Part shown: in pieces, positions 8,801 to 35,405 of the stretch
Layout of the letters: each line of letters starts with the position of its first letter
Numbering within the stretch: position 1 is the stretch's first letter
Assembly: GCA_043785065.1 (NCBI GenBank)
Contig: JAYVXT010000108.1
Span: 1-54,572 of the forward strand
DNA: 54,572 nt
From: Bryobacterales bacterium
GTDB lineage: Bacteria; Acidobacteriota; Terriglobia; Bryobacterales; Bryobacteraceae
Direction: 5' to 3'
Translations under genes and position numbers: made by a program
The notes under the pieces: generated by a model
Told to the model about the DNA's origin: nothing
Database searches by the model: none
The model's input: the letters and a program-made list of their open reading frames with translations, nothing else

Positions 8801-9133
8801 CAGACGGGCGTTTTGCCGGGTGACCGTGTTAGCGGTTATGCCCAGGTTACGATAGGTTTCAGTCTTAAAACCGGCGTTGGTGACTTTAAGATCGTAGCTG
8901 CCAGGAAGAACGTTGGAGATCAGATAACGACCGCCTTCGTCTGTCTTGGCTTCGTAAGTTTGGCCTGTACCCTTATTCGTTAAGGAGACGGTAGCGTTCG
9001 GAATCAACCCGCCCGATGCATCTTCAAGCACGCCGATTACTGAACCGTAAAGGACTTGGGCAACCGCTGGGGTTGTCCAACAAATCATCATGGCAAGCGC
9101 CACGATGGGGAAAGATATTTTTCTTAGATTCAT
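5852..9133 (-). CDS. TonB-dependent-receptor-like outer-membrane protein with N-terminal carboxypeptidase-regulatory-like domain
   Basis: Start at ATG 9131-9133 gives MNLRKISFPIVALAMMICWTTPAVAQ, a signal peptide. The CarboxypepD_reg-like module is GVLEDASGGLIPNATVSLTNKGTGQTYEAKTDEGGRYLISNVLPGSYDLKV. About 1000 aa of beta-barrel-type sequence follow, ending in the terminal aromatic ...GLRVQF. Confidence 0.85.
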   Translation of the reverse strand: MNLRKISFPIVALAMMICWTTPAVAQVLYGSVIGVLEDASGGLIPNATVSLTNKGTGQTYEAKTDEGGRYLISNVLPGSYDLKVTNAGFKTETYRNLGITANTVTRQNARLEVGSTSDTITVEAQATTLQTDKADTHTELNAQQISSLPLPGYRNYQSLINLVPGATPSSFQNSVTDSPGRSLRTNINGTNANNNMTRIDGAASVNLWLPHHTGYVMPAEMVSTVNVTTSAGDAEQGMAGGASITLVTKSGTNQFHGSAFEFHDNDHLKARNFFSPVKPIRTYNNYGATIGGPIKKNKLFFFYSFDGTRQRDGAFGTYSVPTADIRGGNFATTGTTIYDPATGAANGVGRQAFPGNMIPTSRISSAAQKIQANYPNPNKAGVNSNLDATGGPLFHRDYNDVKINWTRNEKSQVWGHYGIMKALVSGKAIFGDGVGPSPGADPGTGDTRVQNMSAGHNYTLGPNLLLDGVFGYQRQDQTVRGVDFGKNYSQILGIPGINNPNDIMASGFPNISISGYNGFGVPGWMPLNRVEESYTTSHNLSYTKGAHLFRFGFDGVNHRMTHYQPELGAGPRGAIDFSGGPTALNGGPSANNFNAYAAFLLGESNNVQKSIQYILMTPREFQFGWYAQDRWQVTRKLTLNLGLRYELYPLMTRATGKGIERLEPLTNQVCLGGRGNQPKDCGVTVSHKLFAPKIGLAYRIDEKSVFRMGYGINFDPLPFSRPLRGFYPLTVNFNFDAPNAYATIRTLAQGIPDVQGPDLSTGIVNLPAVADMRSPNLGQIHRGYVQSWNATFERRLPQSVIVTLAYVGTQTVHQLADLDINSSSPGLGNAGRPYNAKFGRQIATNMWDGYLSSNYHSLQNSFRKQFSQGLMIQGSYTWSKAINMTDEDGWAGVGWNWAPVFNRNRALAGYDRTHIFNVGWVYELPFGKGKSWASSGPAAYIVGGWSVGGIMAAYTGTPFTVGASGTSLNIGGGNAQTADQVKPEVVRLSQVGPGTFWYDASAFAPVTTTRFGSTGRNILRNPGVWNTDLSLNRTFVVTERIKIEFRGEATNFPNTSHFGGMASTSVANLGNNFLSVRSSFGERQARFGLRVQF

Positions 9134-9174
9134 TTTGAAACTCCCCGAAGCTTTTATTCGTCTAATCAACTTGG

Positions 9175-9203
9175 TAGCTTTCGCCTATCGATTGGCAAAG
9201 CTA
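9175..9203. repeat. Imperfect inverted repeat TAGCTTTCGCC-N8-GGCAAAGCTA upstream of the receptor gene (candidate operator)
   Basis: The arms at 9175-9185 and 9194-9203 are complementary apart from one bulged C. It lies 42 nt upstream of the 9133 start codon. Function is inferred only. Confidence 0.25.
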
Positions 9204-9329
9204 TTTATTTAAGCTAGAGAATTTACTTCTGCAAGTCAAGGGGGTGCTAGCTTCCTCTGGTCGGCTGGGAAGTTGAAACTCACCTAACTGCAGTTTCCGA
9301 TTCCTTAGCCAATCAGGCCAGGGGGCCCG

Positions 9330-9720
9330 ATCACAGACAATGGTCGACTCCACTTTTTCACATAAGCATCCCCTGCTGATGTAGCGGGGGGATGTCTCGT
9401 AATTAATCGATGGAATGGGACGTTTGATTTAAGGACATTGTCGTGAATGCTGGCGTCAATTCAAAGCTCTGGTTGGTAACTGCAAGGTTGGCCGATTACG
9501 GGTTGCTAGACCTGTTCTTACTGAATTCCGCGAAGTGGACTCCGGCGTTTGACCGCCTTCAGCGAAGATGCGGCGATACTTCCGCCAATGGCAATCAGCT
9601 ATGCCGCAAGTTTGCCGATTATTATGGAGACATGCCCGGCCGTCTTTTTATCCCCCCGTTGTGTCTGGGTCAGATGGGGATTCACCGATCGTTTCGAGAA
9701 ATCATCTACAGCCTCGTGAG
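9330..9720 (+). pseudogene. Decayed, internally deleted fragment of a CRTAC1/FG-GAP gene, paralogous to 2462-4063
   Basis: DNA at 9412-9650 aligns by eye with 2885-3235 of the intact gene. Examples: GCGAAGTGGACTCCGGCGTTTGACCGCCTT vs GCGAAATGGACTCCGGCGTTTGACCGCTTC, and GGAATGGGACGTTTGA vs GGAATGGGACCTTTGA. The relic translates as NSKLWLVTARLADYGLLDLFLLNSAKWTPAFDRL versus NSKFWSVAAGWFDYDGDGLLDLFVVNYAKWTPAFDRF. The Asp-rich motifs are lost and there are deletions and stops. The boundaries are approximate. Confidence 0.6.
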
Positions 9721-9843
9721 CAACTTGCCTCTCGCCAAAAACCCTTACCCCGTGCACCCACATGCCAATATCAAATCGAAGAAGAATAAAGGGTAGTCCA
9801 CTTCCTACCAAGCAGTCCGCCTAATCCATAGCAAAGAGGGCCC

Positions 9844-10282
9844 ATGGCAACACAAGATCAAATCACGGCCAGCAAGGCCTTCAACACCTTCTCCACACAT
9901 GTCGTTTCCAGCTTCACCCAACCGCCGAAGGCATCGACCCTCTGCTGTCCGGCGCGAACAAAAAAGCCTCGCATCGCAACCTACCGCAAGCGAGCCGAAC
10001 GTACTTTCCATATGTGTTTGAAGGAAGTACCAGGCCCACCAAACCGCCCATCACTTGGACGAACCAATGCTGAAGAACGAACCCAAACTCCTTGAGTTTG
10101 CCTTCAAGACCGAGCCTTATGTCCGTCCGAACCCAATCGGCCGCAGCGAATCTTACCCGTGCCACACAGGCCGCAAATACAAGAACTACTATTGCGGAAC
10201 GAACCCAATTCCGCCTTCCCAGCGGTTTCGCAGTGGGGTTCGGCCAGTCGCCCGCTTCTCAAAGTCGTGTCATGGAGGATAG
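9844..10282 (+). pseudogene. Possible relic of a SEC-C-motif protein gene (frame-disrupted)
   Basis: At 10139-10198 the translation GRSESYPCHTGRKYKNYYCG aligns position-for-position with the SEC-C metal-binding consensus GRNDPCPCGSGKKYKKCCG, but two of the four Cys are Tyr. The surrounding reading frames are short and mutually out of frame. Confidence 0.3.
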
Positions 10283-10502
10283 GATGAGCCAGGCGAAGAC
10301 CATAGAGACGCCTCGGTTACAGTCCCAAATACCCACAAAGAGGGTTATGCCCCCCGCAACGGCGCTTTATTGAAATTGCGGAACAGCGCAATAATATGAA
10401 TGTGGATGACCCACGCAATTCTCTTTTGGCGCATTATGGTTTAGAGGAAGGCCAGAAAACATCTGATGGCTATTCGATTTCGTACCGATAAGTGAGGTAG
10501 CT

Positions 10503-11372
10503 ATGGTTTATCGTTTATTTCCGGCTGTGTTGGTCATCTTCATCGCCGCGGCCCTGCCGGCCAAAGCGCAACTCAGTGCGCGCCAGATTTTTTATGACGA
10601 TGGGAGCGATAAGAAGAATACGCCCCCGGCAAAACCGGCCATCGTAAACCCACCGAAGCCCAAAGCCGTGAAAAAAACTCCACCCGTACCCAAACCGGTA
10701 AAACCAAGCGAGGGAAATGAACCCGTAAAGATGAAGGGGCCGCCGGAGACAGTTTCACAGGCGCCTTATCAAGAGGTACAGGCCGTGCCTCTGGCTCTTC
10801 GCTACAGCATCTTGAAAATACTGCCTTCCGATGAATCCATGGAAGTGGATGCGGAGACCAGTTTCCGAACTGGCGACAAGATTCAATTAATGGTGGAGGG
10901 CAATCAGGCGGGGTATCTTTACATTTTCAGTCAAGGCACAAGTGGAACCTGGCGGCCCCTGTTCCCCTCATCGGAAGTAGAAAATGGCGACAACCGGATC
11001 CGCCCTCACAAACCTGTCATTCTTCCCGGGGAAAGTGAAGTCATAAAATTCGCGGGGAAACCAGGCAAGGAAAGGTTGTTCATACTCTTGTCGCGTAACC
11101 CCGACGAGGACATCGACAAACTCATCTACCAGCAAACAAGCAGCTCACGCACCATGATCGCAGCCGCGCCTATTAAGGGTTCGGCCGTGGACAAGCTCAA
11201 AGTGCAAGCGCGGGACCTGGTGATTGAGAGTGTCAAGGAAAAAGCGGCCGCCAGCGCGAGACCAATGGCCGGTTCGTCCGGCAGGATGAGTGAATCGGCA
11301 GTGTATGTTGCTACAAAAGATGTTTCCTTAAACGCCAAGGTGGTTGCGGAAATCAACCTCAAACACGAGTAG
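10503..11372 (+). CDS. Exported DUF4384-domain protein with Pro/Lys-rich linker
   Basis: The signal peptide is MVYRLFPAVLVIFIAAALPAKAQ. The linker is PPAKPAIVNPPKPKAVKKTPPVPKPVKP. The DUF4384-type core is FRTGDKIQLMVEGNQAGYLYIFSQGTSGTWRPLFPS...IRPHKPVILPG...FAGKPGKERLFILLS. GTGAGGTAG lies before the ATG. Confidence 0.75.
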   Translation: MVYRLFPAVLVIFIAAALPAKAQLSARQIFYDDGSDKKNTPPAKPAIVNPPKPKAVKKTPPVPKPVKPSEGNEPVKMKGPPETVSQAPYQEVQAVPLALRYSILKILPSDESMEVDAETSFRTGDKIQLMVEGNQAGYLYIFSQGTSGTWRPLFPSSEVENGDNRIRPHKPVILPGESEVIKFAGKPGKERLFILLSRNPDEDIDKLIYQQTSSSRTMIAAAPIKGSAVDKLKVQARDLVIESVKEKAAASARPMAGSSGRMSESAVYVATKDVSLNAKVVAEINLKHE

Positions 11373-11379
11373 GCGGCAC

Positions 11380-12084
11380 ATGAAAACGATTTCACTACTG
11401 CTACTTTCGGCTCTAGCTTCCTGTTGGGCGGCGGAGGCTCCGGTCAAGACGCAATGGATGGATATCATCCTGGAACGGCAACAGGCGTCCCTCTGGACAG
11501 CGGTTGAACCTGGTCTTGTGCTGAATCAAGGGGACATAATCCGCTTTCGCTTCCGCTCTAATTTCGATGGGTACCTGTATGTCACCAATCGCGGCTCAAG
11601 CGGAGCGGAAATGCTTCTATTCCCAAGAGAAGAAACCGGTAAAGCGAACCGCATTCAAGCGGGAAGGGACTACCTGATCCCAGCCACGGAAACACACTTC
11701 CGGATCTCCGGCCCCTCCGGCTACGATTCCATCTATTGGCTGGTTAGTCCGGTTTCCTTATCGGTGGGGCCGTCACTGCCAAAAATGACGGAATCCAACC
11801 TGCCTCCCGCCAATCCGCCAGGCAACGTCCAGCCACAACAGCCCGCCTCGCTAACTCCGCGTTGCGACCCTGCGCAGCTTCGCGCCCGTGGTTTTTGCAT
11901 CGATAGCGAAGCCGGTGTGCGAAACGTGGACGATCCTTCAAAGGCTCCGGCTAAAATCGCCCAGACTCCCGACCTACAACCGAGAGATTTAACTATGATA
12001 CAAAGCAAAAACAAGACTCGCATTTCCACCGGTGGCGCCATTGGTGGGCCCGTGGTTTACCAATTTCGTCTTGCCCATAATTAG
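11380..12084 (+). CDS. Exported DUF4384-domain protein (second paralog)
   Basis: ATG 11380 gives MKTISLLLLSALASCWAAEA, a signal peptide. The core is LNQGDIIRFRFRSNFDGYLYVTNRGSSGAEMLLFPREE...IQAGRDYLIPA...FRISGPSGYDSIYWLVSP, the same pattern as the preceding gene. Confidence 0.75.
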   Translation: MKTISLLLLSALASCWAAEAPVKTQWMDIILERQQASLWTAVEPGLVLNQGDIIRFRFRSNFDGYLYVTNRGSSGAEMLLFPREETGKANRIQAGRDYLIPATETHFRISGPSGYDSIYWLVSPVSLSVGPSLPKMTESNLPPANPPGNVQPQQPASLTPRCDPAQLRARGFCIDSEAGVRNVDDPSKAPAKIAQTPDLQPRDLTMIQSKNKTRISTGGAIGGPVVYQFRLAHN

Positions 12085-12156
12085 GCCGGAATTAATGACG
12101 CTAAAACACGCCGCACCGCGCTTTTATAGTAGAATGGCGCCAGTCATCCTCCTTTC

Positions 12157-14439
12157 ATGGCTAAAGACGCAATCTTAGAAGCCGACCTCGGCGGCATTCC
12201 GATCTCACCAGACGAACTGGCGGCGATCCCTGATTTTTCCGCCATTCGTAAAGAGATTTGGAGCAAGTTCCCCGGCGCCATCACCAAGAAAGTATTTAAA
12301 CCGGGTGAGATCATTATGCGGGAAGGCGAAAGCGGCTCAACCGCTTTTTACCTGCTTTCCGGTACTGTGGATATCTACATCAACAGTCCCATCGCCTCCG
12401 CCAAATCCAAACAGGGCAAATCCAAAAGCCTGTTCCAAGGCATCACCAAAATCACCAGCTACCTGAAGGGCATCCCGGAGCGCAACGAAAAAGGACGCGC
12501 CGTTCGGTCCCATATTCCCATTGATGCCTCGGTCGACCTGCCCATGGACAACCCCATCGCCTCCATTGGCCCTGGTGAGCTGATAGGCGAACTAGCCGCC
12601 TTGGCCGCCTTAAAGCAGGATCGCCTCAAGCGTCCCAAATTCTATCCGCGCTCGGCCACCGTTCGCGCTAAAACCGACGTCGAAATGCTGGAAATGTTGC
12701 CCAACATTTTGAACAACGTGCTCTACAACGCCCCTGCCTTCAAGGACAAGCTCAACAAGAACTACCGCACCCGCGCCCTTGACGCGCACTTCCGCTCCGT
12801 CCCCGTTTTCCGCGACGTCAGCCAGGAATTTCTCGACAAGCTGCGCGACCGCGTGGAACTGGTGGACGTCGTCCCCGGCCAAGTGATCTGTAAGCAGGGC
12901 GATGTGGCTGACGCCTTTTATCTGGTGAGGCTAGGGTTCGTGAAAGTGGCTCAGGATTTCCCTGGTGGCGAATTCGTGCTTACCTATCTTTCCCGCGGTT
13001 CTTACTTTGGCGAAATGGGCCTGCTTCCGCCCGTTTTCCGCGTCCGCGCCAAGGGCATCGAACCGGGGCAAACCGCCGAAGGAGCCCTAACATCGGAACC
13101 TCTCACATGCGGCCGCGCGCCGGAAGGCGAACGAGGTTTCGCCGCAGGCTGGGACGACTATATTTCCCGCGAGCATTTTCAAATGGCCGCTGAAGGCCGC
13201 CAAGTCCGCGTCACCAATCTTCCCTCGGGCAAGAACCCCATCCTGTTCCGCATGAAACCGGCCGATAGCTTCTTGATTTCACCCGGTGAGACTTTCGTTG
13301 TCGGCAACACAACGTTCGAAATCCTGGAAGATCCGTTCCTCACAGGCAAGCGCACCGCCACCTGCACTTCTATGGACTTCGTGCAGTTGGTGAAGATCAA
13401 GGCCGAAGACTTCGCTGCCATGCTGATCGAGTTCCCCTCGGTCAACGCCTCCATCACCGAAGTGGCGCGCGCCCGCCGTCAGATGGACATGCAGTTGTTG
13501 AACCGCGTCCAAACCGTTTCGCTCAACGACTTCTTAAAACAAGAACTGATGCAGGGTCAGAACCTGCTACTGATCGACCTGACTAAATGCACCCGTTGCG
13601 ACGAATGCGTCAAGGCTTGCGTTTCCACCCATACCGATTCGGTAACCCGCCTGATCCGCGACGGCCTGCGCTTCGACAAATACCTTGCGCCCACCAGTTG
13701 CCGCGCCTGCATGGACCCGCTCTGCATGACTCGTTGCCCGGTAGGTTCCATCCGCCGAAAAGAGTCGCTCGACATTGTGATTGAGGATTGGTGCATCGGC
13801 TGCGGCAACTGCGCCAATGACTGCCCCTATGGCAACATCAACGTCGTTGAACTGGTGAACGAAGGCGTCAAGGGGCAGAAGGCCGAACCCAAACCCAAAG
13901 CCGTCGTCTGCGATCTTTGCACCGAATACGCCGAACCCAATTGCGTGCGCGCCTGCCCGCACGACGCGGCTATCCGCGTTGAGCCGAAATCCTTCTTCGC
14001 TAAGGAACTTGCCGGCCTGCAACTAGCCGTTCCCAGCTTACCGGCCTCCGTCGCCCCGCAAGCCGCGGTCGAAGCTATGCCCGGCGGCGGCAATATGGAA
14101 ACACGCATCTATTCCAATGCCAGCGACCTGCTGCCGCTCTTGCCGCAATTGAAAATGGTGGAAGGCCCACGCCCAGGTTCTACATTGCAGTTGCGAATCC
14201 CCGCCACCACTTTTGGCCGCGGCGCCGAAAACGATTACCGCTTCGCCGACGACACGCAGCTTTCCCGCAACCATTGCCGCATCGTCATGGAAAACAGGCG
14301 CTTCATGCTGACCGACAACGGCTCCACCAACGGAACCTTCGTCAACGGCAACCAAGTGACGGAAATCGAACTGCGCTCCGGCGACTTGATTGAGTTCGGC
14401 GAGGTCAAGCTGGAATTCCACTCGGGGCAAATCCAATGA
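12157..14439 (+). CDS. Multidomain redox/signalling protein with four parts: cNMP-binding domain, cNMP-binding domain with a nested FHA-like insert, four-cluster [4Fe-4S] ferredoxin module (DmsB/NrfC/PsrB-like), and C-terminal FHA domain
   Basis: 760 aa.
- CNB1, about aa 30-190: GEIIMREGESGSTAFYLLSGTV ... GELAAL...RSATVRA.
- CNB2, about aa 212-440: FLDKLRDRVELVDVVPGQVICKQGDVADAFYLVRLG...YFGEMGLL [insert] KRTATCTS.
- FeS module, nt 13564-13989, 16 Cys in four motifs: CTRCDECVKAC, CRACMDPLCMTRCP, CIGCGNCANDCP, CDLCTEYAEPNCVRACP.
- FHA, nt 14152-14427, with all canonical residues: FGRG...SRNHCRI...STNGTFVNG...GDLIEFG.
- No Sec or Tat signal. Confidence 0.9.
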   Translation: MAKDAILEADLGGIPISPDELAAIPDFSAIRKEIWSKFPGAITKKVFKPGEIIMREGESGSTAFYLLSGTVDIYINSPIASAKSKQGKSKSLFQGITKITSYLKGIPERNEKGRAVRSHIPIDASVDLPMDNPIASIGPGELIGELAALAALKQDRLKRPKFYPRSATVRAKTDVEMLEMLPNILNNVLYNAPAFKDKLNKNYRTRALDAHFRSVPVFRDVSQEFLDKLRDRVELVDVVPGQVICKQGDVADAFYLVRLGFVKVAQDFPGGEFVLTYLSRGSYFGEMGLLPPVFRVRAKGIEPGQTAEGALTSEPLTCGRAPEGERGFAAGWDDYISREHFQMAAEGRQVRVTNLPSGKNPILFRMKPADSFLISPGETFVVGNTTFEILEDPFLTGKRTATCTSMDFVQLVKIKAEDFAAMLIEFPSVNASITEVARARRQMDMQLLNRVQTVSLNDFLKQELMQGQNLLLIDLTKCTRCDECVKACVSTHTDSVTRLIRDGLRFDKYLAPTSCRACMDPLCMTRCPVGSIRRKESLDIVIEDWCIGCGNCANDCPYGNINVVELVNEGVKGQKAEPKPKAVVCDLCTEYAEPNCVRACPHDAAIRVEPKSFFAKELAGLQLAVPSLPASVAPQAAVEAMPGGGNMETRIYSNASDLLPLLPQLKMVEGPRPGSTLQLRIPATTFGRGAENDYRFADDTQLSRNHCRIVMENRRFMLTDNGSTNGTFVNGNQVTEIELRSGDLIEFGEVKLEFHSGQIQ

Positions 14440-15404
14440 TCGTCGATCGCGGCCAGTTGCAATGGATCTATGCCACCACGGCCATCGCCATGGCCTCCAC
14501 CGCAGCCTACCTTGTGTACGCCGTCCTGTCGGCCAACGGCCCTCGCGCTGGCTCGGCAATGGGTTTGGTCTTCGGCTTTGCCGGCACGGGGATCATCATT
14601 TTTGAATGCCTGCTCAGCTTGCGAAAGAAGTACCCGGCCTCTCCGGTTGGCCGTGTCAGCTTGTGGATGCGCGCGCATGTGTGGCTGGGTCTGCTCAGCC
14701 TTTTGCTGATCCTGTTCCATTCGGGCTTCCATTGGGGGCGAGGCCTCGCTAGTCTGCTCATGTGGCTGTTCGCCATCATCGCTATAAGTGGAGTGGTAGG
14801 CGTCGCGCTTCAGAATTACATCCCCACGCGAATGATGGAGCTGGTTCGCCGCGAAACCATTTACGCCCAAATTCCCCACAACATTATTGAATTGCGCCGC
14901 GAGGCCGACGAGCGCACCGAGTTCGTCACGGCCGATCTTGGCGTTGAGGAAACCGACGTGGAATTCCAGCGCGCGGGCGGTGTGAAGCAGTACTTCGACC
15001 CTTCGCAAAAAGCCGGGGCCGCTGAAAAGCTAGCCGTATTTGTGGAGCAGCGCAGGAAGACCAGGCAGATCGACGTGGGCGACGAAGGAGCCGGCATTCT
15101 GCGCTCCCACTACCTGCAGGAGATCCGTCCCTACTTATTTCAAAAGCCGCAGCCGCTTTCCGGAAAGCTATTCCAGACCGAGCAATCCGTGCGCGCTTAC
15201 TTCAATTTCCTGCGCACCATCATGCCGGTGGCCGCGCATTCGGTCTTGACCGATCTGGAATCCATTTGCGAGGAGCGCCGGCAGCTTGCCGTGCAAACCC
15301 GCCTTCATCATTTATTGCATGGGTGGCTCTACTTGCACGTGCCGCTATCCATGGCGTTTCTGGTTCTAATTTTGATTCATGCGGTGGTGTCGCTCCGCTA
15401 CTAA
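14436..15404 (+). CDS. Integral membrane protein, 5 predicted TM helices and a ~165-aa cytoplasmic insert; candidate dihaem cytochrome-b-like (ferric-reductase/MsrQ-like) subunit
   Basis: The ATG overlaps the upstream stop (ATGA at 14436-14439). Hydrophobic segments lie at about aa 10-31, 41-62, 78-97, 103-127 and 295-320. Histidines sit at both ends of TM3 (RAHVWLG...LFHSGFHWG) and TM5 (LHHLLHGWLYLHVPL...LIHAVV). The RAHVWLGLLSLLLILFH pattern recalls ferric-reductase-domain haem-ligand helices. Coding status is confident; the cofactor assignment is inference. Confidence 0.6.
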   Translation: MIVDRGQLQWIYATTAIAMASTAAYLVYAVLSANGPRAGSAMGLVFGFAGTGIIIFECLLSLRKKYPASPVGRVSLWMRAHVWLGLLSLLLILFHSGFHWGRGLASLLMWLFAIIAISGVVGVALQNYIPTRMMELVRRETIYAQIPHNIIELRREADERTEFVTADLGVEETDVEFQRAGGVKQYFDPSQKAGAAEKLAVFVEQRRKTRQIDVGDEGAGILRSHYLQEIRPYLFQKPQPLSGKLFQTEQSVRAYFNFLRTIMPVAAHSVLTDLESICEERRQLAVQTRLHHLLHGWLYLHVPLSMAFLVLILIHAVVSLRY

Positions 15405-15405
15405 T

Positions 15406-16734
15406 ATGTCCAAAGAAGAAAAACCGATACCGTATGAATCGCGGATCATCGACACCAAGGGCACGGCCCAGAGGCTGGACCTGCGCTATCTCGAAAAGCC
15501 TAACCGCTTCATCGATCTGCGCAAGAAACTTACTTGGATCGCGCCGCTGGTTGCCGCCGTTGCCGCCATTCCGTTTCTAACCGGCATTGGCCCGCTCAAT
15601 AAAGTTTTCTCCAACGGCCCCATATCGAAGCCGCACGCCATTTTTGAGCAGAACTGCCAGCTATGCCACGCCAAAGCATTTTCCAAGGTGGCGGACGCAA
15701 GCTGCATCAAGTGCCACGACGGCCCAGCGCATCCAGCGAAGTTAGTGGACACAGGCAAGCAGAACCGCGACGTCCGCTGCGCTACTTGCCACCTGGAACA
15801 CAAGGGTTCAACCAATCTGAAGGAGGTCTCCAGCAAGAACTGCACCACCTGCCATGCCTCGCTCAATGAAAACGGCACAGGCGTGCATCTCAAGAATGTT
15901 TCGGTAAGCGCCTTCAAGGAAGGCAAGCATCCCAATTTCCCCGAGCCCGGTTTAATAGACAACCGCCCCTTGAAATTGAATCATGCCGCACACATGCCCA
16001 AGGACCCGAAGACAATTCGCGGCATGAAGCTGCCGATGAGGTGCACCGAATGCCACACCACTTCAGCAAACCTCGCCACCGGCGGCCTTGAGCCCGTCAC
16101 GTTCGAGGCTAATTGCAAAGACTGCCACAAGCGCGAACTGGAGTTCCTATTGCCCGGCCTCACGGCCCAGGCCTCTCCGGCGCCGCACACTAAGGACGTG
16201 GCCAAGATCCGCCAACACATTCTAGAAACCTATCAGCGGCTGGTGGCGGAAAATCCTTCCCTTACCATGCAGAGCCTTGATCGCGAAATGACCACCGAGC
16301 CCAGTCCTGCGGCGTGGATTGCGAAAGCTGCGAAGAAATCGGAACAATACTTATTTGAAAACAAGTGCAAGTACTGCCACGAATATGACGGCATGGACGA
16401 TGGCTTTCCCCTGATCAAAAAGGTAAACCGGATTCGTGGCCGTTACGTCGCCGATAAGCCCGAAGGCGAACCTTGGCTCGTGCGTGGGGAATTCGCCCAT
16501 CGCGCCCACCGCGCCGTGGACTGCTCATCCTGCCACTCCACCTCCAAAGCCAGCACCAAAACTTCCGACGTACTCATCGCCGGAATGAAGGATTGCGTGG
16601 CGTGCCATGGCAATAGCGGCACGGCCATCGACAACTGCTCACAGTGCCACCTATATCACAACAAGGCGAAAGAAAAAGACCATGACCGCCGCAGCGTGGA
16701 AGAACTGGTCGGCGCCTTAAGAGGAAGTTACTAA
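15406..16734 (+). CDS. Membrane-anchored decahaem c-type cytochrome
   Basis: Start at ATG 15406, 1 nt after the upstream stop. There is an N-terminal anchor helix (LTWIAPLVAAVAAIPFLTGIGPL) preceded by DLRKK. I counted ten CXXCH motifs: CQLCH, CIKCH, CATCH, CTTCH, CTECH, CKDCH, CKYCH, CSSCH, CVACH, CSQCH. Confidence 0.9.
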   Translation: MSKEEKPIPYESRIIDTKGTAQRLDLRYLEKPNRFIDLRKKLTWIAPLVAAVAAIPFLTGIGPLNKVFSNGPISKPHAIFEQNCQLCHAKAFSKVADASCIKCHDGPAHPAKLVDTGKQNRDVRCATCHLEHKGSTNLKEVSSKNCTTCHASLNENGTGVHLKNVSVSAFKEGKHPNFPEPGLIDNRPLKLNHAAHMPKDPKTIRGMKLPMRCTECHTTSANLATGGLEPVTFEANCKDCHKRELEFLLPGLTAQASPAPHTKDVAKIRQHILETYQRLVAENPSLTMQSLDREMTTEPSPAAWIAKAAKKSEQYLFENKCKYCHEYDGMDDGFPLIKKVNRIRGRYVADKPEGEPWLVRGEFAHRAHRAVDCSSCHSTSKASTKTSDVLIAGMKDCVACHGNSGTAIDNCSQCHLYHNKAKEKDHDRRSVEELVGALRGSY

Positions 16735-16737
16735 ACC

Positions 16738-17454
16738 ATGCAACTGTTCGGACTCTGCCATATTGGCCGCGTGCGCCAAAATAACGAGGACTGCCTGCGA
16801 ATCGAACCGGACCTCAACACAGTGATTGTCGCCGACGGAATGGGCGGGGCGAACGCCGGTGAAGTGGCCTCGGCCATCACAGTCGAAACCATTGTTGAGT
16901 ACCTTCGCAATCCACCGGAAACGCTTGCCGTTGCCGAGCGAATCAAAGAAGCCATCCGCGCCGCGAATGCTAAGGTTTGGCGGACGGCCCAGCAGCGTCC
17001 GGAATGCTCGGGCATGGGTTCCACTATCGTCATGGCCCATTGGGAAGGCGATCAGATTTGGATCCAAAATGCGGGCGATAGCCGGGCCTACCGTCTGCGG
17101 AATGGCGAACTGACGCAGCTCTCCTACGATCAGAATTTGGGCAATGACCTTCGCCACTCGCTTGGCTTGACCGCCGAGCAAGTCAAAAAATACCCGCAAC
17201 GCAACGTCCTAACCATGGCTGTAGGCGTAGGCAGCGACATTTTGGTGCGCTGCTATGAGGAGCCGATGGAACCGGGCGACACCTACTTGCTCTGCTCCGA
17301 CGGACTTTACGGGCCAGTTAAGGAGCCCGAACTTTTGGAAATCATGAAGAGCCCGCTTCCATTGCCAGCCTTGGCGGCTACGCTGGTGGACCGGGCCAAC
17401 GCAAATGGCGGCCCAGACAATATCACGGTGGCGCTTTTGCGTCATGATAAATAG
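16738..17454 (+). CDS. PP2C-family Ser/Thr protein phosphatase (Stp-like)
   Basis: 238 aa with RVRQNNEDC, VADGMGGANAGEVAS, LLCSDGL and GGPDNITVALL, the PP2C metal-binding motifs. It begins 3 nt after the cytochrome stop. Confidence 0.9.
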   Translation: MQLFGLCHIGRVRQNNEDCLRIEPDLNTVIVADGMGGANAGEVASAITVETIVEYLRNPPETLAVAERIKEAIRAANAKVWRTAQQRPECSGMGSTIVMAHWEGDQIWIQNAGDSRAYRLRNGELTQLSYDQNLGNDLRHSLGLTAEQVKKYPQRNVLTMAVGVGSDILVRCYEEPMEPGDTYLLCSDGLYGPVKEPELLEIMKSPLPLPALAATLVDRANANGGPDNITVALLRHDK

Positions 17455-17459
17455 GATCC

Positions 17460-18656
17460 ATGGAAGCAATCGGCGCATATAAGATTCAGAGCACTCTCGC
17501 CGCGGGCAGAAGGCCCGTTTATCTGGCCACGTCTAAAGACGGGAAAAAAGTTGTCATTAAGACGGCCCCAGTTAAGGAATTGGGGGAGGAAGAACGCGCC
17601 CGTTTCCTACGCGAAGCCGGGATCTGCTCCAAGCTCGATCACCCCAATCTGGTTAAGGTGATCGAATCGGGTGAAGCGAATGGGGTTCTCTATCAAGTGA
17701 TGGATTATCTCGAAGGCATGGACTTGAACAAGGCATTCGCCGCAGGACGGCAATTCACTTGGGCCGATAAACTAAGCATTCTTGAAGCGGTATGCTCCGG
17801 TTTGCAATATGCGCACGCGCAAGGTTTGGTTCACCGCGATATCAAACCAGCCAACCTGTTTCTGGAAAATGCGGGCAACATGCGCATCCTCGATTTCGGC
17901 ATGGCGCGTGAAGGCGCGTCCGAGTTGACGAAAGTGGGCTCCGCCGTCGGCACGCTGAACTACATGGCGCCGGAACAGATTCGCGGAGAAACCTGCACTG
18001 CCGCCACCGACGTGTTTGCGGTCGGCATTGTGATGCACCAACTTTGCACCGGCCATCATCCTTTCGCCATGGGCAAGAAGACTTTGCCGGAGATCCTCAG
18101 CGCCATCTTATTCGATGCACCGCCCGTATGGGGCGAAGCCGGAGACGGCGCGCCCGAAGGGTTGGAATTCGTCACCCGCCGTGCACTTGAAAAGGATTCC
18201 GAAAAGCGCTGGCATAATGCCGGGGAACTAAAGCAGGCTGTGTCGCTCTGCCGCTTTACGCTGGATAACAAACCCGCCGATGCGGCATTTTCTCAAGTAA
18301 CGTCCGCGCCCGCGGTCGCGCCGCGCGAGCCGGAAATAGAAAAGACCATTGTTGTAAAACGCGATGCTCCGCGGCCCGTTGCACCCGCACCTCCGCCGGC
18401 TCCAGTGCCGCTTCCACCGCCCGCGCCAAAATCGGCGCCCGTTCCGCAGCCACCTTCGCAAACCAAGTTCTGCACGTCTTGCACCTATTCGAATCCGCGG
18501 GACGCCGTGGTGTGCGGCAAGTGCGGCATTCCCTTCGCGGCCGCAACGGCAAGTGAATCCGCATCCGGCGTCTCCAATAAAACGATGTGGATATTGGCGG
18601 CCGCAGTCGCATTGCTTGTTGTTGCTTTGATATTTGTGGGAGTCCTTTCCAATTAA
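17460..18656 (+). CDS. Hanks-type Ser/Thr protein kinase, C-terminally tail-anchored, with Pro-rich linker and zinc-ribbon
   Basis: Kinase motifs are VVIKT (catalytic Lys), HRDIKPANL, DFG and APE. A Pro-rich stretch (APAPPPAPVPLPPPAPKSAPVPQPP) follows. Then comes CTSCTYSNPRDAVVCGKCG (CxxC-N12-CxxC, nt 18471-18524). The C-terminal TM helix is MWILAAAVALLVVALIFVGVL. Confidence 0.9.
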   Translation: MEAIGAYKIQSTLAAGRRPVYLATSKDGKKVVIKTAPVKELGEEERARFLREAGICSKLDHPNLVKVIESGEANGVLYQVMDYLEGMDLNKAFAAGRQFTWADKLSILEAVCSGLQYAHAQGLVHRDIKPANLFLENAGNMRILDFGMAREGASELTKVGSAVGTLNYMAPEQIRGETCTAATDVFAVGIVMHQLCTGHHPFAMGKKTLPEILSAILFDAPPVWGEAGDGAPEGLEFVTRRALEKDSEKRWHNAGELKQAVSLCRFTLDNKPADAAFSQVTSAPAVAPREPEIEKTIVVKRDAPRPVAPAPPPAPVPLPPPAPKSAPVPQPPSQTKFCTSCTYSNPRDAVVCGKCGIPFAAATASESASGVSNKTMWILAAAVALLVVALIFVGVLSN

Positions 18657-20234
18657 ATGGCTACTCCCCCGCGCATCGTCATTATTGGCGGAGGCTTCGC
18701 CGGCGTCTATGCCGCCCGCGCCCTTGAAAAATTACTAAAGCCGTGGGAGGCGGAGATCTGCCTCATCAACCGCGAAAACTATTTCGTCTTCCAACCGCTC
18801 TTGCCGGAAGTCATTAGCGGGGCAATCGGCCTGGTCGAAACTGTGTCTCCCATTCGACGCCTATGCCCCCGCACCCAACTCTACGTGCGGGATGTGGAAG
18901 CCGTCGATCTGCGCGAAAAGATCGTCCGCATGACTCCAGCCACACGCCCTCGCGCACTGGACCTGCCTTACGACTTTCTAATTATGGCCCCCGGAACGGT
19001 CACTGATTTTTCCGGCATGCCGGGCCTGGCGGAGTATGCCCTGCCCTTCCGCACCCTAGGCGATGCCTTGCGCTTACGCAACCGCGCCTTGGAATCGCTT
19101 GAGGAAGCGGCCATCGAAAAGGACGAGTGGTTCCGCAAGCGGCTGCTAACGTTCGTCATCAGCGGCGCCGGATTTTCCGGAGTGGAAGTAGCGGCTGAAC
19201 TCAACGATTTCCTGCGCGCAGCCGTGAAGGATTTCCGTAGTCTAAATGCCGAGGAAATCCAGGTCATCCTGGTCCATTCGCGGGAACGCATCCTGCCGGA
19301 AATGGCGCCGGAGCTGGCCGAATATGCTCAGAAACTTCTCGCAAAGCGCGGAGTCACTTTGAAGCTGGGCGTGCGCGTGAAATCATGCACCGCCGACACA
19401 GTGATCCTAAACAACGGCGATTGGATTGAAGCGCGCACCGTGATTTCAACCGTTCCCTCCGCCTTAACACCACTTGTAGCAGCGATGGATTGCAAGAAGG
19501 AAAAAGGCCGCCTGGTAGTGAATGGGCAGTTGGAAATGGCGGGATTTGAAGGCCAAGCGTGGGCCCTTGGCGACTGCGCCACCATCATGATGAGCGACGG
19601 AACAGCCGCTCCGCCCACGGCACAACACGCCACGCGCGAGGCCTATGTCGCCGCCGCAAACATCGTCGCTTGTGTCCGCGGCAATAGCGACCGGCGCACC
19701 TTTAACTTTGCAGGCCTCGGCAAACTAGGCTCACTTGGCCATCATTCCGCGGTAGCCGAAGTGTTCGGTATGAAAATCTCCGGCTTCCCGGCCTGGGTGC
19801 TCTGGCGGACAATTTATCTGATGAAGATGCCCGGACTTGACCGCAAACTGCGCGTCGGGCTCGATTGGTTCACCGGCATGCTCTTCAAGACCGACCTGGT
19901 CCAACTGCGCGTGCAGACATCGAGCAACATCACCAACGAGCATTTCGAGGCTGGCCAAATCGTCTTCGAACAAGGCGATGCCCCCGACCGTCTTTACATC
20001 ATTCAAAAAGGCGAAGTGGAAGTATTGCGCGATGGTGAGCGGTTGGCCTCGATCGGTGAGGGAGAATCATTCGGAGAAATGGGTCTACTGACCAATTCCC
20101 CTAGAAACGCAACCATCCGCGCCTCCAAGCCAACCGACGTTGTGGCTATCACAAAAGGCGACGTCACCCAATTGCTGAACAATTTTCCCGAACTCCGCGC
20201 GGGTTTGCAAGGCATCGCCGAAAAACGCAAGTAG
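18657..20234 (+). CDS. NDH-2-type NAD(P)H/FAD-dependent oxidoreductase fused to a C-terminal cyclic-nucleotide-binding domain
   Basis: N-terminal IVIIGGGFAGVYAA (FAD Rossmann), second dinucleotide fold FVISGAGFSGVEVAAEL, then WALGDCA. The C-terminal 100 aa (nt 19929-20231) form a CNB fold with an intact phosphate-binding cassette, FGEMGLLTNSPRNATIRA. The ATG directly abuts the kinase stop codon. Confidence 0.9.
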   Translation: MATPPRIVIIGGGFAGVYAARALEKLLKPWEAEICLINRENYFVFQPLLPEVISGAIGLVETVSPIRRLCPRTQLYVRDVEAVDLREKIVRMTPATRPRALDLPYDFLIMAPGTVTDFSGMPGLAEYALPFRTLGDALRLRNRALESLEEAAIEKDEWFRKRLLTFVISGAGFSGVEVAAELNDFLRAAVKDFRSLNAEEIQVILVHSRERILPEMAPELAEYAQKLLAKRGVTLKLGVRVKSCTADTVILNNGDWIEARTVISTVPSALTPLVAAMDCKKEKGRLVVNGQLEMAGFEGQAWALGDCATIMMSDGTAAPPTAQHATREAYVAAANIVACVRGNSDRRTFNFAGLGKLGSLGHHSAVAEVFGMKISGFPAWVLWRTIYLMKMPGLDRKLRVGLDWFTGMLFKTDLVQLRVQTSSNITNEHFEAGQIVFEQGDAPDRLYIIQKGEVEVLRDGERLASIGEGESFGEMGLLTNSPRNATIRASKPTDVVAITKGDVTQLLNNFPELRAGLQGIAEKRK

Positions 20235-20304
20235 GGCTGGCCCGTGTCATACCCACCCCAAAACCTCAAATTTGATAGACTTCTCTACAAATCAGGAGGG
20301 CTTC

Positions 20305-23300
20305 ATGTTTCGTTCGATTCCTCTTATCCTCATTGCCGCGTTGTTTGCCGCAAAAGTGCATGCGCAAACAACATTCGCCACCATCACAGGCGTAATCACC
20401 GATCCTGGCGGAGCAGTCGTCCCTGGCGCTGAACTTATCGTCACCCACGTTGAAAACAACTATCGCTACACTGCCCGCTCAAACGAAGCAGGCAACTACA
20501 ATATCACGCAACTTCGCGAAGGCGTCTACACTCTGCGCGTGCAAGCCCCGGGATTCAGTGAATCTCTTGTGCAAGAAATCCGCCTGGTTTCACTCGATGT
20601 CCGCCGCATAGACGTACGGCTTGCTATCGGCACGCTGGAAGCGAAGGTGGAAGTCACCGCCGGGGCAGCGCTCATCGAAACCGAAACCGCGCGCATCAGC
20701 GATTCCAAAGGTGCGGATTCGCTCAAAGCCCTGCCGATGAACACGCGCTCGCTCTGGAACTTCGTGGGCCTATCGCCCGGCGTCGTGCAAGCGGGGAACG
20801 GATCGTCAACCCGTCGCTTCGCCGGAAGCCGCGCCAATCAATCGGACGCCTCAGTGGACGGCGTGACCATTAGCAACAACATCGACGGCACTCAGATTTC
20901 GCCCCTGGTCAGCTACATCGAAAGCTTCGAGGAAGTGCGCGTCGACATGGCCAACAACACATCGGAATTCGGCTCCATCGGCCAGGTAACTATCATCTCT
21001 AAATCAGGCACGAACCAGTTGCATGGCAGCTTCTTCGATTACTACTCAACGCCATTTTTCCGCGCGCGCAACCCATTCGCGGCAACGCGCGGCACCGGCG
21101 TCAGGCACTCCCCAGGCGGATCGGTTGGCGGCCCCGTTGTGATTCCACAAATCTACAACGGCCACAACAAAACGTTTTTCTTTTACTCACTGGAAACTTC
21201 GCGGGGCAGCGCCATGCAACAACTGGTGAACCCCACCGTGCCGCTGGTCCCATGGCGATCCGGAGATTTTTCCGCACTCGCCGCCACCACCGTCATTCGC
21301 GATCCTTTCGCTTCTAACGCACCCTTCGCCGGCAACCGGCTTCCGGCCAACCGCATTTCTACCGTCTCCCAAAAGATTCAAGATCGCTTCTACCCGCTCC
21401 CCAATTTCGGCAACACCGCCACGTTAGTAAGCCAAAATTATCGCGAGCAACTCTCGCGCGAATTCGACCCCGACCTTTATTGGACCACGCGCATCGACCA
21501 TCGCTTTTCCGAAAAGAGTTTCGTCTTCGGCCGCTACACCTGGAACAATTCCTATAGCCGCCCCTTTGAAGGTAACCTGCCCACTATTGGCCAGTTGTGG
21601 CAAATTCGCGATACTCGCGCGCTCAACTTTTCCTACACGCAAACCATCAAAACAAATTTGATCAACGAATTCCGCTTTGGTTTCGCCTACAACGATCAGC
21701 CGCGCAACGGTGCACAAAATGGCAATCAACTGGCTAAGGATTTGGGATTACAAGGCCTTGCCCCTGGCATTCCGGATATCAACGGCATCTTGAAGCTCGG
21801 CTTCTCCGGCATAGGCGTCACCGGCCTCACGCAAACTGATTGGCGTCATCCTGGTTTCAAGAATTACCCGAAGCAGTTTCAAGAACAGTTGAGTTGGTTC
21901 CGCAACAAGCACACAGTGAAAGCCGGCGCGCTTGCCAGTTTCGTCCGGTTTGAAGATAACCAGGCGCCCGCCAACCTATTCGGCAGCGTCAGTTTTTCCA
22001 ACCGATTCACCAATCACCCCTATGCTGATTTCTTGCTCGGCATCCCCACCACGGCCGCGCGCGCTTTTCCCCAAACCTATGTCGACCGCTCGCGCCCCAA
22101 CTACGATCTCTTCATCATCGACGATTACAAGGTTTCGCCGAAGATGACTCTCAACCTGGGGATTCGCTACGAATTTCACCCAGCCTGGACCGAAGCCAAT
22201 GGCTTGCAATCGATCTTCGATATCGCCACCGGACAAATCGTAGTGCCTGACGGCTCGCTCAGCCAGGTCAGTTCTATTTTTCCAAAAAGCTACGTCAATG
22301 TAGTGGAAGCCAAAGCCGTGGGCCTGCCCGGCGGAACGCTGATCAAGACCGACAAAAACAACTTTGCGCCGCGCATCGGTTTGGCATACCGGCCATGGGG
22401 CAACAACACGGTAATCCGCGCCGGCCTCGGCATCTTCTTCGATATCGTGCCACGCCAAGTGACCACTAGTGGCGCGCCCTTCAGCGTGGCCGAACCCAAC
22501 TTCACCAATCCAACACCTGTGCCCACGCTGCTGTTCCCCCAAGTGTTTCCCGCAACGGTGGGCAATCCAACTACAGTGGTGCTGCCGGGCGCTATTCGCA
22601 CAGACCTGCGCGTGCCGTACAGCATGCAGTATAACTTCACTATTGAACATCAGCGCTGGAATAATGGTTTCCGCGCCAGCTACATTGGCACCAACACAAG
22701 GCAAGGCGAATGGGGTTACAACATTAATCAGCCTGTTGCCGATGCGCGCGCCTTCATCGACAAGCCACGCTTGTTCCCCAATTTCCCGGCCCTTACATAC
22801 ACAAGCAATGGTTCCGGCCACCAGTACAACGCCATGACGTTGGAAGTGCACCGCCGCTTTCTGAAGGGCTTCTCCTATCAGCTTTCCTGGGTTTTGGCCC
22901 GCGATATCGGCGATCTGGAACGCGGCGAATCCCCCGAGGATGCTTACAACCGGCACCGCGAAAAAGCAGTGTGGGTTGATATTCCCACGCATCGCGTCAG
23001 CGGCAACGTCATCTATGAATTGCCTTTCGGCAAAGGAAAGACGTTCCTTTCTAAAGCTGGCCGCGCCCTCGATACTGTTGCCGGCGGCTGGGAGTTGAGC
23101 GTTATCTACAGCTCTTATTCAGGCCAATTCCTCACGCCGCAGTGGACCGGCATTGACCCCACAGGCACTGCCTTCACCACCAGCCGCACCGCGGCGCAAG
23201 TGACAATTCGTCCCAACGAATTAGTGGACCCTAATCTCGATAGCGGATCGCGTTCAGTTAGCCGTTGGTTCGACCCCTCGGCGTTCGGTGCACCGGCCGT

Positions 23301-29749: not shown

Positions 29750-29766
29750 TGATATGATGTTTGTGG

Positions 29767-30411: not shown

Positions 30412-30949
30412 ACCGCCCTGCGAACCGTGGCTTTCTTTTTTGACCGAACTGGACGTTACGCTCGATGAACCAGCCGATTTCCATTGCATCGGCGGATTCG
30501 TGGTGAGTCAACACTACGGATTAGGACGTGAAACGGCGGACCTTGACGTTCTTTCGGTGTTTCCCAAAGCAGCGGCTGAACGTGTCATGCAGTTGGCCGG
30601 CAAAGGATCGGCGCTACAAAAAAAACATCGGGTTTACATTGACTACGTTCGGGTGGCAAACTACCCGGATTCCTATGAAGACCGTCTGATCCGCACGTTT
30701 CCCGTTTGGACCAACATCAGGTTATGGGCTCTCGAAGCACATGACCTTGCGTTGACGAAACTGGAGCGAAGCATTGAAAGGGATATCCGCGATGTGATGT
30801 TTCTGGCTAAGGCTGGGCTGATTAACCGGGAAACACTGATTGCACGGTTCGAGACTGAGTGGGAGCCGTACGTTACTGGCCGGGCTCCTACGTGGAATCG
30901 AGGCACGTTAAACATGTGGATTGAGGCTTGTTGGCCCAGGGAGGCGTAA
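30392..30949 (+). CDS. Nucleotidyltransferase-fold protein (DUF6036/AbiEii/MNT-like), putative toxin partner
   Basis: CIGGFVVSQHYGLGRETADLDVLS fits the minimal NTase motif hG[GS]-x(9-13)-D-x-D. The protein is 185 aa and translationally overlaps the XRE gene. Confidence 0.6.
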   Translation: MQDVPLEPPCEPWLSFLTELDVTLDEPADFHCIGGFVVSQHYGLGRETADLDVLSVFPKAAAERVMQLAGKGSALQKKHRVYIDYVRVANYPDSYEDRLIRTFPVWTNIRLWALEAHDLALTKLERSIERDIRDVMFLAKAGLINRETLIARFETEWEPYVTGRAPTWNRGTLNMWIEACWPREA

Positions 30950-32428: not shown

Positions 32429-32431
32429 TAT

Positions 32432-35403: not shown

Positions 35404-35405
35404 GC

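Follow-up and report, generated by a model that had tools for sequence, protein, structure and literature searches.

Several described systems carry electrons across a membrane by routes that resemble the one considered here. In the Hmc, Tmc and Dsr complexes, the route runs from a cytoplasmic iron-sulfur (FeS) protein over membrane haem b to a periplasmic multihaem cytochrome of the c3 family. In the ferric-reductase-domain systems NOX/DUOX, STEAP and MsrQ-Fre, a flavoprotein oxidises NAD(P)H and the electrons cross via two bis-His haems b. The ImcH, CbcL and Cbc systems of Geobacter and the Ndh2-dependent extracellular electron transfer of Listeria provide an inner-membrane entry that draws on the quinone pool and feeds periplasmic or extracellular multihaem or flavin acceptors. 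Here we describe a six-gene operon on contig JAYVXT010000108.1 of a Bryobacterales bacterium (assembly GCA_043785065.1), of which the whole 54,572-nucleotide stretch, hereafter the window, was analysed. Comparison of the operon with its relatives suggests a regulated, probably quinone-independent inner-membrane electron conduit, a reading to which we give slightly better than an even chance. No Pfam, NCBIfam (June 2026) or PDB entry names or describes the complex, in agreement with the initial annotation, which could match it to no characterised system; its novelty is judged against these resources only. The six genes are as follows.

12157-14439, plus strand: FeS subunit, 760 amino acids (aa), with Pfam matches to cNMP_binding, Fer4 dicluster families and FHA
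14436-15404, plus strand: membrane subunit with five hydrophobic transmembrane (TM) helices and conserved His
15406-16734, plus strand: decahaem cytochrome c, 442 aa, with an N-terminal anchor, ten CxxCH motifs and matches to the Pfam c7/c3 families
16738-17454, plus strand: PP2C Ser/Thr phosphatase of the Stp1 type (Pfam PP2C_2, E 8.5e-15)
17460-18656, plus strand: Hanks-type Ser/Thr kinase (Pfam Pkinase, E 1.8e-46)
18657-20234, plus strand: flavoprotein of the type II NADH dehydrogenase (NDH-2) type with a canonical domain for binding cyclic nucleoside monophosphates (cNMP-binding domain, CNB); Pfam Pyr_redox_2, NDH2_C and cNMP_binding; an accessory gene

Read directly from the sequence, the successive junctions are an ATGA overlap (-4), TAA-T-ATG (+1), +3, +5 and TAAATG (0), and a gap of 72 nt separates position 12157 from the second of two upstream genes for exported DUF4384 proteins. 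All eight genes of the initial annotation, with their coordinates, junctions and gap, were borne out by the open reading frames (ORFs) and by this direct reading. Profile-HMM annotation of the products agreed with the assignments as well, except for the membrane protein, which lies below every Pfam threshold. Ten haem motifs, 16 patterned Cys and five conserved junctions together are far beyond chance. A promoter and terminator scan of 9100-21000 returned counts no higher than the shuffled expectation and was uninformative on the operon boundaries.

Strong evidence comes from the relatives of this locus. One genome per GTDB species was scanned, which gave at least 579 loci; the best 80 were retrieved with 10-kb flanks and examined. 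These loci were annotated by phmmer, with the domains of the window and the proteins of one distant locus as queries, and taxon labels are those of the metagenome-assembled genome (MAG) records. The trio of FeS, membrane and decahaem genes proved to be conserved beyond this genome: wherever the sequence suffices (80 retrieved loci), the three genes are co-linear and share a strand. The loci fall into two types, and all 16 Cys of the FeS subunit, the four His of the membrane subunit and the ten CxxCH motifs of the cytochrome are conserved in both. Type B comprises 56 loci. In 55 of them a NuoE+NuoF fusion precedes the trio, and the FeS subunit begins with a HoxU/NuoG-like N-terminus, followed by the same region of CNB1, CNB2 and 16 Cys as in the window. 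The resulting four-gene module (NuoE+NuoF fusion, HoxU-like+CNB+16-Cys protein, membrane protein, decahaem cytochrome) is seen at L035:6080-12488, from a Candidatus Acidoferrum MAG, and at 55 other loci among L021-L083. At L035 the fusion matches Pfam 2Fe-2S_thioredx, Complex1_51K, SLBB and NADH_4Fe-4S as well as NCBIfam nuoF_fam (463 bits), and the HoxU-like N-terminus of the FeS subunit scores 174 bits. A divergent gene for a C554-like tetrahaem cytochrome lies near 40 of the 56 loci. The type B labels include Acidoferrum and other Acidobacteriota, Verrucomicrobiia, Chthoniobacterales, Rokubacteria, Binatus, Eremiobacterota, Dongiaceae, Wallbacteria and a few Bryobacterales.

Type A, to which the window belongs, is the Bryobacterales form; it numbered 23 loci at the first count and 21 after subtraction of duplicates, plus the window. 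In the window operon and in all type A loci, both the NuoF-type FMN/NADH subunit and the NuoG/HoxU-type FeS N-terminus are absent (no NuoEF, no HoxU part), and the FeS protein starts exactly at the domain boundary. What type A has added is a C-terminal FHA domain, an FHA-like domain within CNB2 and 11 aa within the CNB1 cassette. Type B is the ancestral-type form and apparent parent of the window operon. By this comparison, the window system is not peculiar to this genome; it is an offshoot, specific to its lineage, of a widespread module. Nor is the complete set of six genes confined to the window, since the full operon including the NDH-2-CNB gene recurs at L087 and L088 with different flanking genes.

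Type B joins a NuoEF/HoxU-like input to the trio and has no quinone-module subunits; our interpretation of the core is therefore a transmembrane NAD(P)H:cytochrome c conduit that does not depend on quinone. In the type B path, electrons would pass from NAD(P)H to flavin mononucleotide (FMN), through an FeS wire of about eight clusters to the haems b, and on to the decahaem cytochrome c and periplasmic or outer acceptors. The initial annotation had proposed a minimal conduit from cytoplasm to periplasm. The type B NuoE-NuoF input and the conserved trio lend strong comparative support to the conduit itself, while its gating and flow direction, together with cofactor binding, the phospho-sites and the electron donor of type A, are features that we infer.

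The FeS subunit would form the cytoplasmic part of the wire. It has no signal peptide, and from its N-terminus it comprises CNB1, a CNB2 interrupted by an FHA-like domain, a polyferredoxin with four cluster motifs and a final FHA. The two CNB domains, the 16 Cys in four motifs, one FHA domain and the missing signal had been recognised from the outset and hold up in Pfam and in the alignment.

12244-12771, plus strand: CNB1, whose cassette retains G144-E145 and R165-S166 and carries an 11-aa insertion specific to type A
13042-13350, plus strand: divergent FHA-fold insert of about 105 aa (aa 296-398), which splits the CNB2 cassette (FGEMGLL ... KRTAT)
13564-13992, plus strand: polyferredoxin module of the HycB/HydN/DmsB type, its 16 Cys in four [4Fe-4S]-type motifs that are invariant in types A and B
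14134-14427, plus strand: canonical C-terminal FHA with G687-R688, S703-R704-x-H706 and N725

The Cys residues of the module (C478/481/484/488, C515/518/523/527, C546/549/552/556 and C585/588/596/600) form the CxxCxxCxxxC(P)-like motifs of four-cluster polyferredoxins and are invariant in 26 homologues. By sequence, the nearest PDB chains are HycB4 and HycB3 of the hydrogen-dependent CO2 reductase (HDCR), with HycB4 the best at E 4.7e-14. The NCBIfam matches of the module are HydN/AegA/DsrO-like, every one below its equivalog cutoff. More than 2000 homologues of the whole protein were found; the best 120 are all full-length, 64-96% identical and labelled Bryobacterales or Solibacter, and among them is Solibacter usitatus Ellin6076, which carries a type A operon.

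The membrane subunit has five hydrophobic helices, with H81 and H95 in TM3 and H301 and H315 in TM5, each pair spaced as H-x13-H. All four His are 99% conserved in 143 diverse representatives with less than 50% identity. A positive-inside analysis of 51 diverse members places in the cytoplasm the N-terminus, the 63-75 loop (mean of 5.3 Lys+Arg) and the soluble stretch of about 160 aa that separates TM4 from TM5. Therefore, TM3 and TM5 run parallel, both from inside to outside, and H81 can pair with H301 and H95 with H315. Two haems b are predicted to be ligated in this way, by H81/H301 near the cytoplasmic face and by H95/H315 near the periplasmic face. Such His pairs, about 13 residues apart on two parallel TM helices, are the hallmark of ferric-reductase domains. 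The family is large (3277 clusters at 50% identity for E<=1e-3, and 510 for E<=1e-30, in a profile search) and it is unnamed. The sole Pfam match of the window protein, DUF4405 at 22 bits, stays under the cutoff of 26.7. Among the 51 members, weak matches were only to the di-haem b families Ferric_reduct (14/51), DUF4405 (9/51) and Ni_hydr_CYTB (2/51). The matches to Ferric_reduct (PF01794) are at E<=0.01, the best at 7.7e-5, and the window protein has none. PDB sequence and profile searches with the membrane subunit found no real relative, and a Foldseek search of the PDB with its AlphaFold2 (AF2) model gave no match at E<=0.001 (best E 0.49; mean predicted local distance difference test score, pLDDT, of 64). 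Many relatives, of 550-880 aa (P0265-P0378), have a far larger cytoplasmic insert between TM4 and TM5, and L024 has this long form. With neither CxxCH motifs nor any Pfam domain, they are ruled out as cytochrome fusions.

The third core subunit consists of a cytoplasmic tail of about 40 aa, one anchor helix and a periplasmic haem domain. Its ten CxxCH motifs recur in almost every related locus, and the tail motif TK..AQR..L.Y is conserved in types A and B. Pfam assigns Cytochrome_C7, Cytochrom_c3_2 and Cytochrom_CIII; in NCBIfam, matches to the Geobacter-type ExtN/ExtO, QrcA and NrfH reach only about 22 bits, and none of the three core subunits of the window has an equivalog there. As we picture the complex, the cytoplasmic subunit with its four [4Fe-4S] clusters would dock on the cytoplasmic domain of the 5-TM protein, which would hold two bis-His haems b stacked across the membrane, and these haems would pass electrons to the anchored periplasmic decahaem cytochrome c.

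Downstream of the operon, many type A loci have three more genes, which encode a C554-like tetrahaem cytochrome, a ~700-aa protein and an octahaem protein of about 1200 aa with LVIVD repeats. The 700-aa protein has no Pfam match, ends in ...VNVRMVF and looks like an outer-membrane barrel. By analogy, these three genes may encode a porin-cytochrome leg in the outer membrane, which would support electron export. Examples are the following.

L007:14242-20955; L001:7258-10409; L017:17540-20915; L088:17961 onward: putative outer-leg genes

We now turn to control. In type B, the tandem CNB is located between the two FeS modules, and the phosphate-binding cassettes are canonical (FGEMTCMNFYPRSAT and FGEIGLLGGGVRTAT in the alignment of types A and B), as is the cassette of the NDH-2 CNB. 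In the window FeS protein, Pfam detects cNMP_binding in two stretches (E 1.9e-26), and a Foldseek search with the AF2 model matches the tandem to CNB-A/B of PKA-R and PKG. The CNB2 cassette also has its key residues (G285-E286 and R399-T400), with an insertion of about 105 aa between them in type A. Because both phosphate-binding cassettes carry insertions in type A, cNMP binding appears less certain in the window form than in type B. CNB1 has a further insertion of about 50 aa at 12385-12552 (aa 77-132), predicted to be disordered and ending in a strongly conserved H-I-P-I-D-A-S-V-D-L-P, common to types A and B; it may serve as a docking element.

Four lines of evidence identify the CNB2 insert, absent from all type B proteins, as a second, divergent FHA fold. 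Its pThr-binding signature (G319-R320, S337-R338-x-H340, N360) is invariant in 26 homologues; hhalign aligns it to the C-terminal FHA with 86.7% probability (E 4.4e-6); the AF2 model shows a beta-sandwich at pLDDT 84-93; and Pfam, below its thresholds, matches 5/5 sequences to Yop-YscD_cpl, a family with the FHA fold, and 2/5 to FHA itself. The initial annotation had reported the C-terminal FHA and overlooked this one. The C-terminal domain is a canonical match (Pfam E 1.2e-21), and Foldseek places it with OdhI/GarA at 36% identity and a root-mean-square deviation of 1.2-1.7 Å. The residues that bind phospho-threonine (pThr), G-R, S-x-x-H and N, are present in both domains. Just N-terminal to the C-terminal FHA lies T649 (14101-14103), in the sequence ETRIYSN, which is invariant in 26 homologues and, by analogy with the arrangement in GarA, is a candidate phospho-site. 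A second candidate phospho-acceptor is T165 of the membrane subunit (14928-14930). Its motif E-F-x-T165-A-D-L-G, with Leu at pT+3, lies within the cytoplasmic segment and is at least 90% conserved in type A, and it is absent in type B.

The enzymes that would act on such sites are encoded in the same operon. The PP2C has the RxxNED and DGMGG motifs and, alone among the products, comes close to an NCBIfam cutoff (222.9 bits against the 230 of Stp1_PP2C_phos). In the kinase, the VIK Lys and the HRD, DFG and APE motifs are all present, and there are a zinc ribbon and, at the C-terminus, a helix that anchors it in the membrane; neither its translation nor Pfam reveals an extracytoplasmic sensor domain. 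Both enzymes, encoded with the FHA protein, are by their motifs probably catalytically competent. Downstream sequence of at least 4.5 kb is available for 16 type A loci; of these, 12 have PP2C, 12 the kinase, 9 both and 15 one or both, whereas FHA, PP2C and kinase are each found in 0/56 type B loci. FHA thus co-occurs exclusively with PP2C and/or kinase, and this shows that the phospho-Thr triad belongs to the system, as had been supposed from the window, and that the FHA and PP2C/kinase genes function together. One type A operon, that of L017, encodes a 340-aa fusion of FHA with a class III nucleotide cyclase (L017:16463-17485) about 700 nt downstream of the NDH-2-CNB gene. This hints that phospho-Thr and cNMP signalling are coupled, and L017 was the sole such locus seen.

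These observations suggest how the conduit could be controlled. Electron flow outward would be favoured by the membrane potential and would dissipate it, so that such a valve would need tight control; we propose that the tandem cNMP receptor is built into the wire for this reason. In type A, kinase and PP2C would set the phosphorylation of a threonine (candidates T165 and T649), and FHA binding would switch the docking or conformation of the FeS subunit and hence turn electron flow on or off. In the subclade of the window, the NDH-2-CNB protein could act as NAD(P)H-oxidising donor or as a parallel route regulated by the same nucleotide. The full proposal is of an electron valve gated by second messenger and phospho-Thr, independent of quinone, with the receptors on the FeS wire itself and, in Bryobacterales, nucleotide and pThr converging on one allosteric site that would open or close the electron path. 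It is tentative, and we would put it somewhat below even.

Several observations weigh against the conduit and its control as described. The interrupted cassettes of type A (Gly-Glu and Arg-Ser/Thr are present in the window protein, yet separated by the 11-aa and ~105-aa insertions) may have altered or lost cNMP binding. Cyclase genes lie near the system in just 4/83 loci and none lies in the window, which rules out a linked nucleotide cyclase as a general feature. Most type A operons encode no cytoplasmic donor, and the window form, with the NADH input lost, encodes none besides NDH-2-CNB. NDH-2 enzymes, moreover, normally reduce quinone, not FeS proteins. The genes of an outer porin-cytochrome-like leg are absent from the 54-kb window. 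Haem b binding and the contacts between subunits are predictions, and neither structural model is reliable where it is needed: the polyferredoxin part of the FeS model has a pLDDT of about 30, which makes the geometry between domains unreadable, and the membrane model, at pLDDT 64, was built on a shallow alignment of 25 sequences.

The Bryobacterales form could instead be a transmembrane redox sensor. Its chain of haems and FeS clusters would carry no metabolic flux; through it, the cytoplasmic FeS subunit would follow the redox potential of the periplasm or the cell exterior, and the FHA and CNB domains would turn the redox state of that subunit into Ser/Thr phosphorylation and cNMP signalling. 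We consider this unlikely, although type A did drop the NAD(P)H input and gain only signalling parts (two FHA folds, PP2C and kinase), the kinase is without a sensor domain of its own, and the FHA-cyclase fusion occurs in a type A operon. A sensor does not readily explain why the whole wire, with 16 Cys, 4 His and 10 haem motifs, is retained exactly as in type B, nor why the subclade adds an NADH-oxidising flavoprotein. The multihaem cytochromes and barrel-like protein added in many type A loci suggest real electron export, and the operon encodes no output such as a transcription factor.

The place of the NDH-2-CNB gene bears on a second alternative. The protein has two GxGxxG motifs of NDH-2 enzymes (GGGFAG at residue 11 and GAGFSG at residue 170) and matches Pyr_redox_2 (E 6.7e-38), NDH2_C (E 2.8e-8) and cNMP_binding (E 7.2e-23). 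Of 16 type A loci, 4 have the gene, and none of the 56 type B loci does. Across Acidobacteriota the fusion as such occurs very commonly, and the best 120 matches all have the CNB. Homologues with at least about 64% identity are linked to the operon, and those with 62% or less lie in unrelated contexts, mostly on their own. The NDH-2 had been taken for an associated part of the system; this stands for the operons of the subclade and not for the mostly stand-alone copies elsewhere. We therefore regard NDH-2-CNB as a genuine operon member in the subclade of the window, accessory rather than core, and as the best candidate there for an NAD(P)H-oxidising donor. Its distribution rules it out as a core subunit. 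Stand-alone NDH-2 proteins with a C-terminal cNMP-binding domain were seen in varied contexts in Acidobacteriota at L084, L085 and L086 (genes 9001-10600); one such copy lies beside pentose-phosphate genes and another two genes away from a CHASE2-guanylate cyclase. This suggests that cNMP-regulated NADH oxidation is a general trait of Acidobacteriota.

In the second alternative, a quinone-linked branch, the membrane protein would be a menaquinol dehydrogenase like CymA, ImcH or CbcL that reduces the decahaem cytochrome, NDH-2-CNB would reduce menaquinone, and the FeS protein would be a second entry or a regulator. An NDH-2 with NDH2_C does share the operon in the window and its subclade, and 2/51 members of the membrane family weakly match Ni_hydr_CYTB, a quinone-reactive cytochrome b family. 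The family, however, has its better matches in Ferric_reduct, a group of proteins that conduct electrons directly across the membrane; NDH-2-CNB is missing from most type A and all type B loci; and type B joins its NuoEF/HoxU diaphorase directly to the FeS wire, without subunits of a quinone module. The quinone-linked branch has, in our judgement, a slim chance. Inward electron uptake, in which periplasmic donors would reduce the decahaem cytochrome and electrons would run to the FeS protein and, in type B, on to NAD(P)+ to supply lithotrophic reductant, is very improbable: nothing in the sequence fixes the direction of flow, and modules of the HoxEFU/NuoEF type, such as those of type B, can run in either direction in known enzymes, but by established bioenergetics uptake works against the membrane potential and NAD+ reduction needs donors of very low potential, the hosts belong mostly to soil heterotroph lineages by their record titles, and the outer porin-cytochrome-like genes are equally compatible with export.

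The quinone-independent conduit thus remains the reading that we prefer, and the other genes of the window lie outside it. Immediately upstream are the two DUF4384 genes.

10503-11372, plus strand: exported DUF4384 protein 1 (Pfam DUF4384, E 3.6e-15), with an N-terminal signal sequence in the translation; a neighbour, not core
11380-12084, plus strand: exported DUF4384 protein 2 (Pfam DUF4384, E 1.4e-12), with a signal sequence and a lipobox-like LASC motif; a neighbour, not core

Both genes are present as the initial annotation had described, but of the loci examined, only L004, L006 and L013, the closest relatives, have the pair ahead of the operon; it is no conserved member, and we reject it as a component. 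On either side of the operon are the genes of three very large outer-membrane proteins (CarboxypepD_reg + OMP_b-brl_4, 1100-1190 aa), at 5852-9169 on the minus strand and at 20272-23580 and 23602-27168 on the plus strand, the second of them with its likely true start at an ATG at 20305, after AGGAGG. No link between these proteins and the conduit was found in relatives. Further downstream, a run of complex I (nuo) genes occupies 31250-40185 on the minus strand and includes, by Pfam, NADHdh/NuoH (31250-32428) and a Proton_antipo_M subunit (32432-33898). An ORF for an FeS subunit in this run, 38082-38720 from stop to stop (called ORF 38079-38609), weakly matches the NuoG-N query. The run appears to encode an ordinary respiratory complex unrelated to the conduit. 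At 42927-45637 on the plus strand, a gene for a dihaem cytochrome c (Cytochrome_CBB3 + Cytochrom_C, two CxxCH) lies directly upstream of one for a dehydrogenase dependent on pyrroloquinoline quinone (PQQ), an arrangement that resembles the usual periplasmic pair of an alcohol or sugar dehydrogenase and its cytochrome. At 29761-30949, also on the plus strand, an HTH_3 gene overlaps a DUF6036 nucleotidyltransferase gene in a cassette that resembles a toxin-antitoxin or defence-associated pair.

If the core works as we propose, many soil bacteria could send NAD(P)H electrons across the inner membrane into multihaem cytochromes and bypass the quinone pool. The lineages concerned, by MAG labels, are Acidobacteriota, Verrucomicrobiota, Methylomirabilota/Rokubacteria, Binatota and Eremiobacterota. 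This would bear on the redox balance of abundant, poorly cultivated soil lineages and possibly on the reduction of extracellular iron, humics or other acceptors. With cNMP receptors and FHA in an electron-transfer subunit, respiration would come under a new control that is post-translational and acts on the wire itself; should the valve prove true, it would be, to our knowledge, the first respiratory-type electron-transfer complex under direct allosteric control by both cNMP and Ser/Thr phosphorylation, and a new di-haem membrane protein family would be defined with it. An FHA fold inside a cNMP phosphate-binding cassette is in itself an unusual signalling domain architecture. Since Solibacter usitatus Ellin6076 is a cultured strain with a type A operon, these predictions are testable.

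Compared with Hmc, Tmc and Dsr, whose logic the initial annotation had recognised in this operon, the likeness holds for the overall route and for the multihaem cytochrome, which matches c3/c7 families in Pfam. It does not extend further: by Pfam, the 760-aa FeS protein has no CCG/HdrD-like domain and the membrane subunit is of neither the NarI nor the NrfD type, which rules out membership of these complexes. Here, by contrast, a HycB-like polyferredoxin is fused to CNB and FHA domains, and the common form of the system is fed by a NuoEF/HoxU diaphorase. The likeness to NOX/DUOX, STEAP and MsrQ-Fre lies in the logic of the proposed core and in the His pairs of TM3 and TM5. The membrane protein, however, has five TM helices instead of six and a cytoplasmic insert of 160 aa before TM5, and in the window it stays below the Pfam threshold. 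It has no fused flavin/NAD domain, a long FeS wire being interposed, and the acceptor is a decahaem cytochrome and not O2, metal ions or MsrP.

HoxEFU and NuoEFG resemble the input of type B, with its NuoE+NuoF fusion and HoxU-like FeS N-terminus, neither of which the window operon has. In type B, this module is wired to a membrane haem protein and not to hydrogenase, formate dehydrogenase or the quinone module of complex I, and the tandem CNB separates the HoxU-like part from the polyferredoxin. With the Geobacter and Listeria systems, the locus shares an inner-membrane entry to multihaem acceptors, and with Listeria a dedicated NDH-2 in the same locus, while some type A relatives have porin-cytochrome-like genes. 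Unlike those systems, the common form here is wired directly to an NADH-oxidising module, and the membrane domain has no homology to ImcH or CbcL beyond, at most, the general di-haem b class. The control elements recall GarA/OdhI of Actinobacteria with PknB/PknG and PstP, where a similar FHA, a conserved Thr shortly N-terminal to it (here T649) and a Hanks kinase and PP2C alongside are also found. In our system the FHA is one domain of an electron-transfer protein, whereas GarA/OdhI regulate TCA-cycle enzymes as free proteins, and a cNMP phosphate-binding cassette harbours a second FHA fold. Taken individually, the polyferredoxin, FHA, kinase, PP2C and NDH-2 are unremarkable for their families; what is new is the combination of these parts, the unnamed membrane family, the CNB tandem in an FeS wire and the FHA fold within a phosphate-binding cassette.

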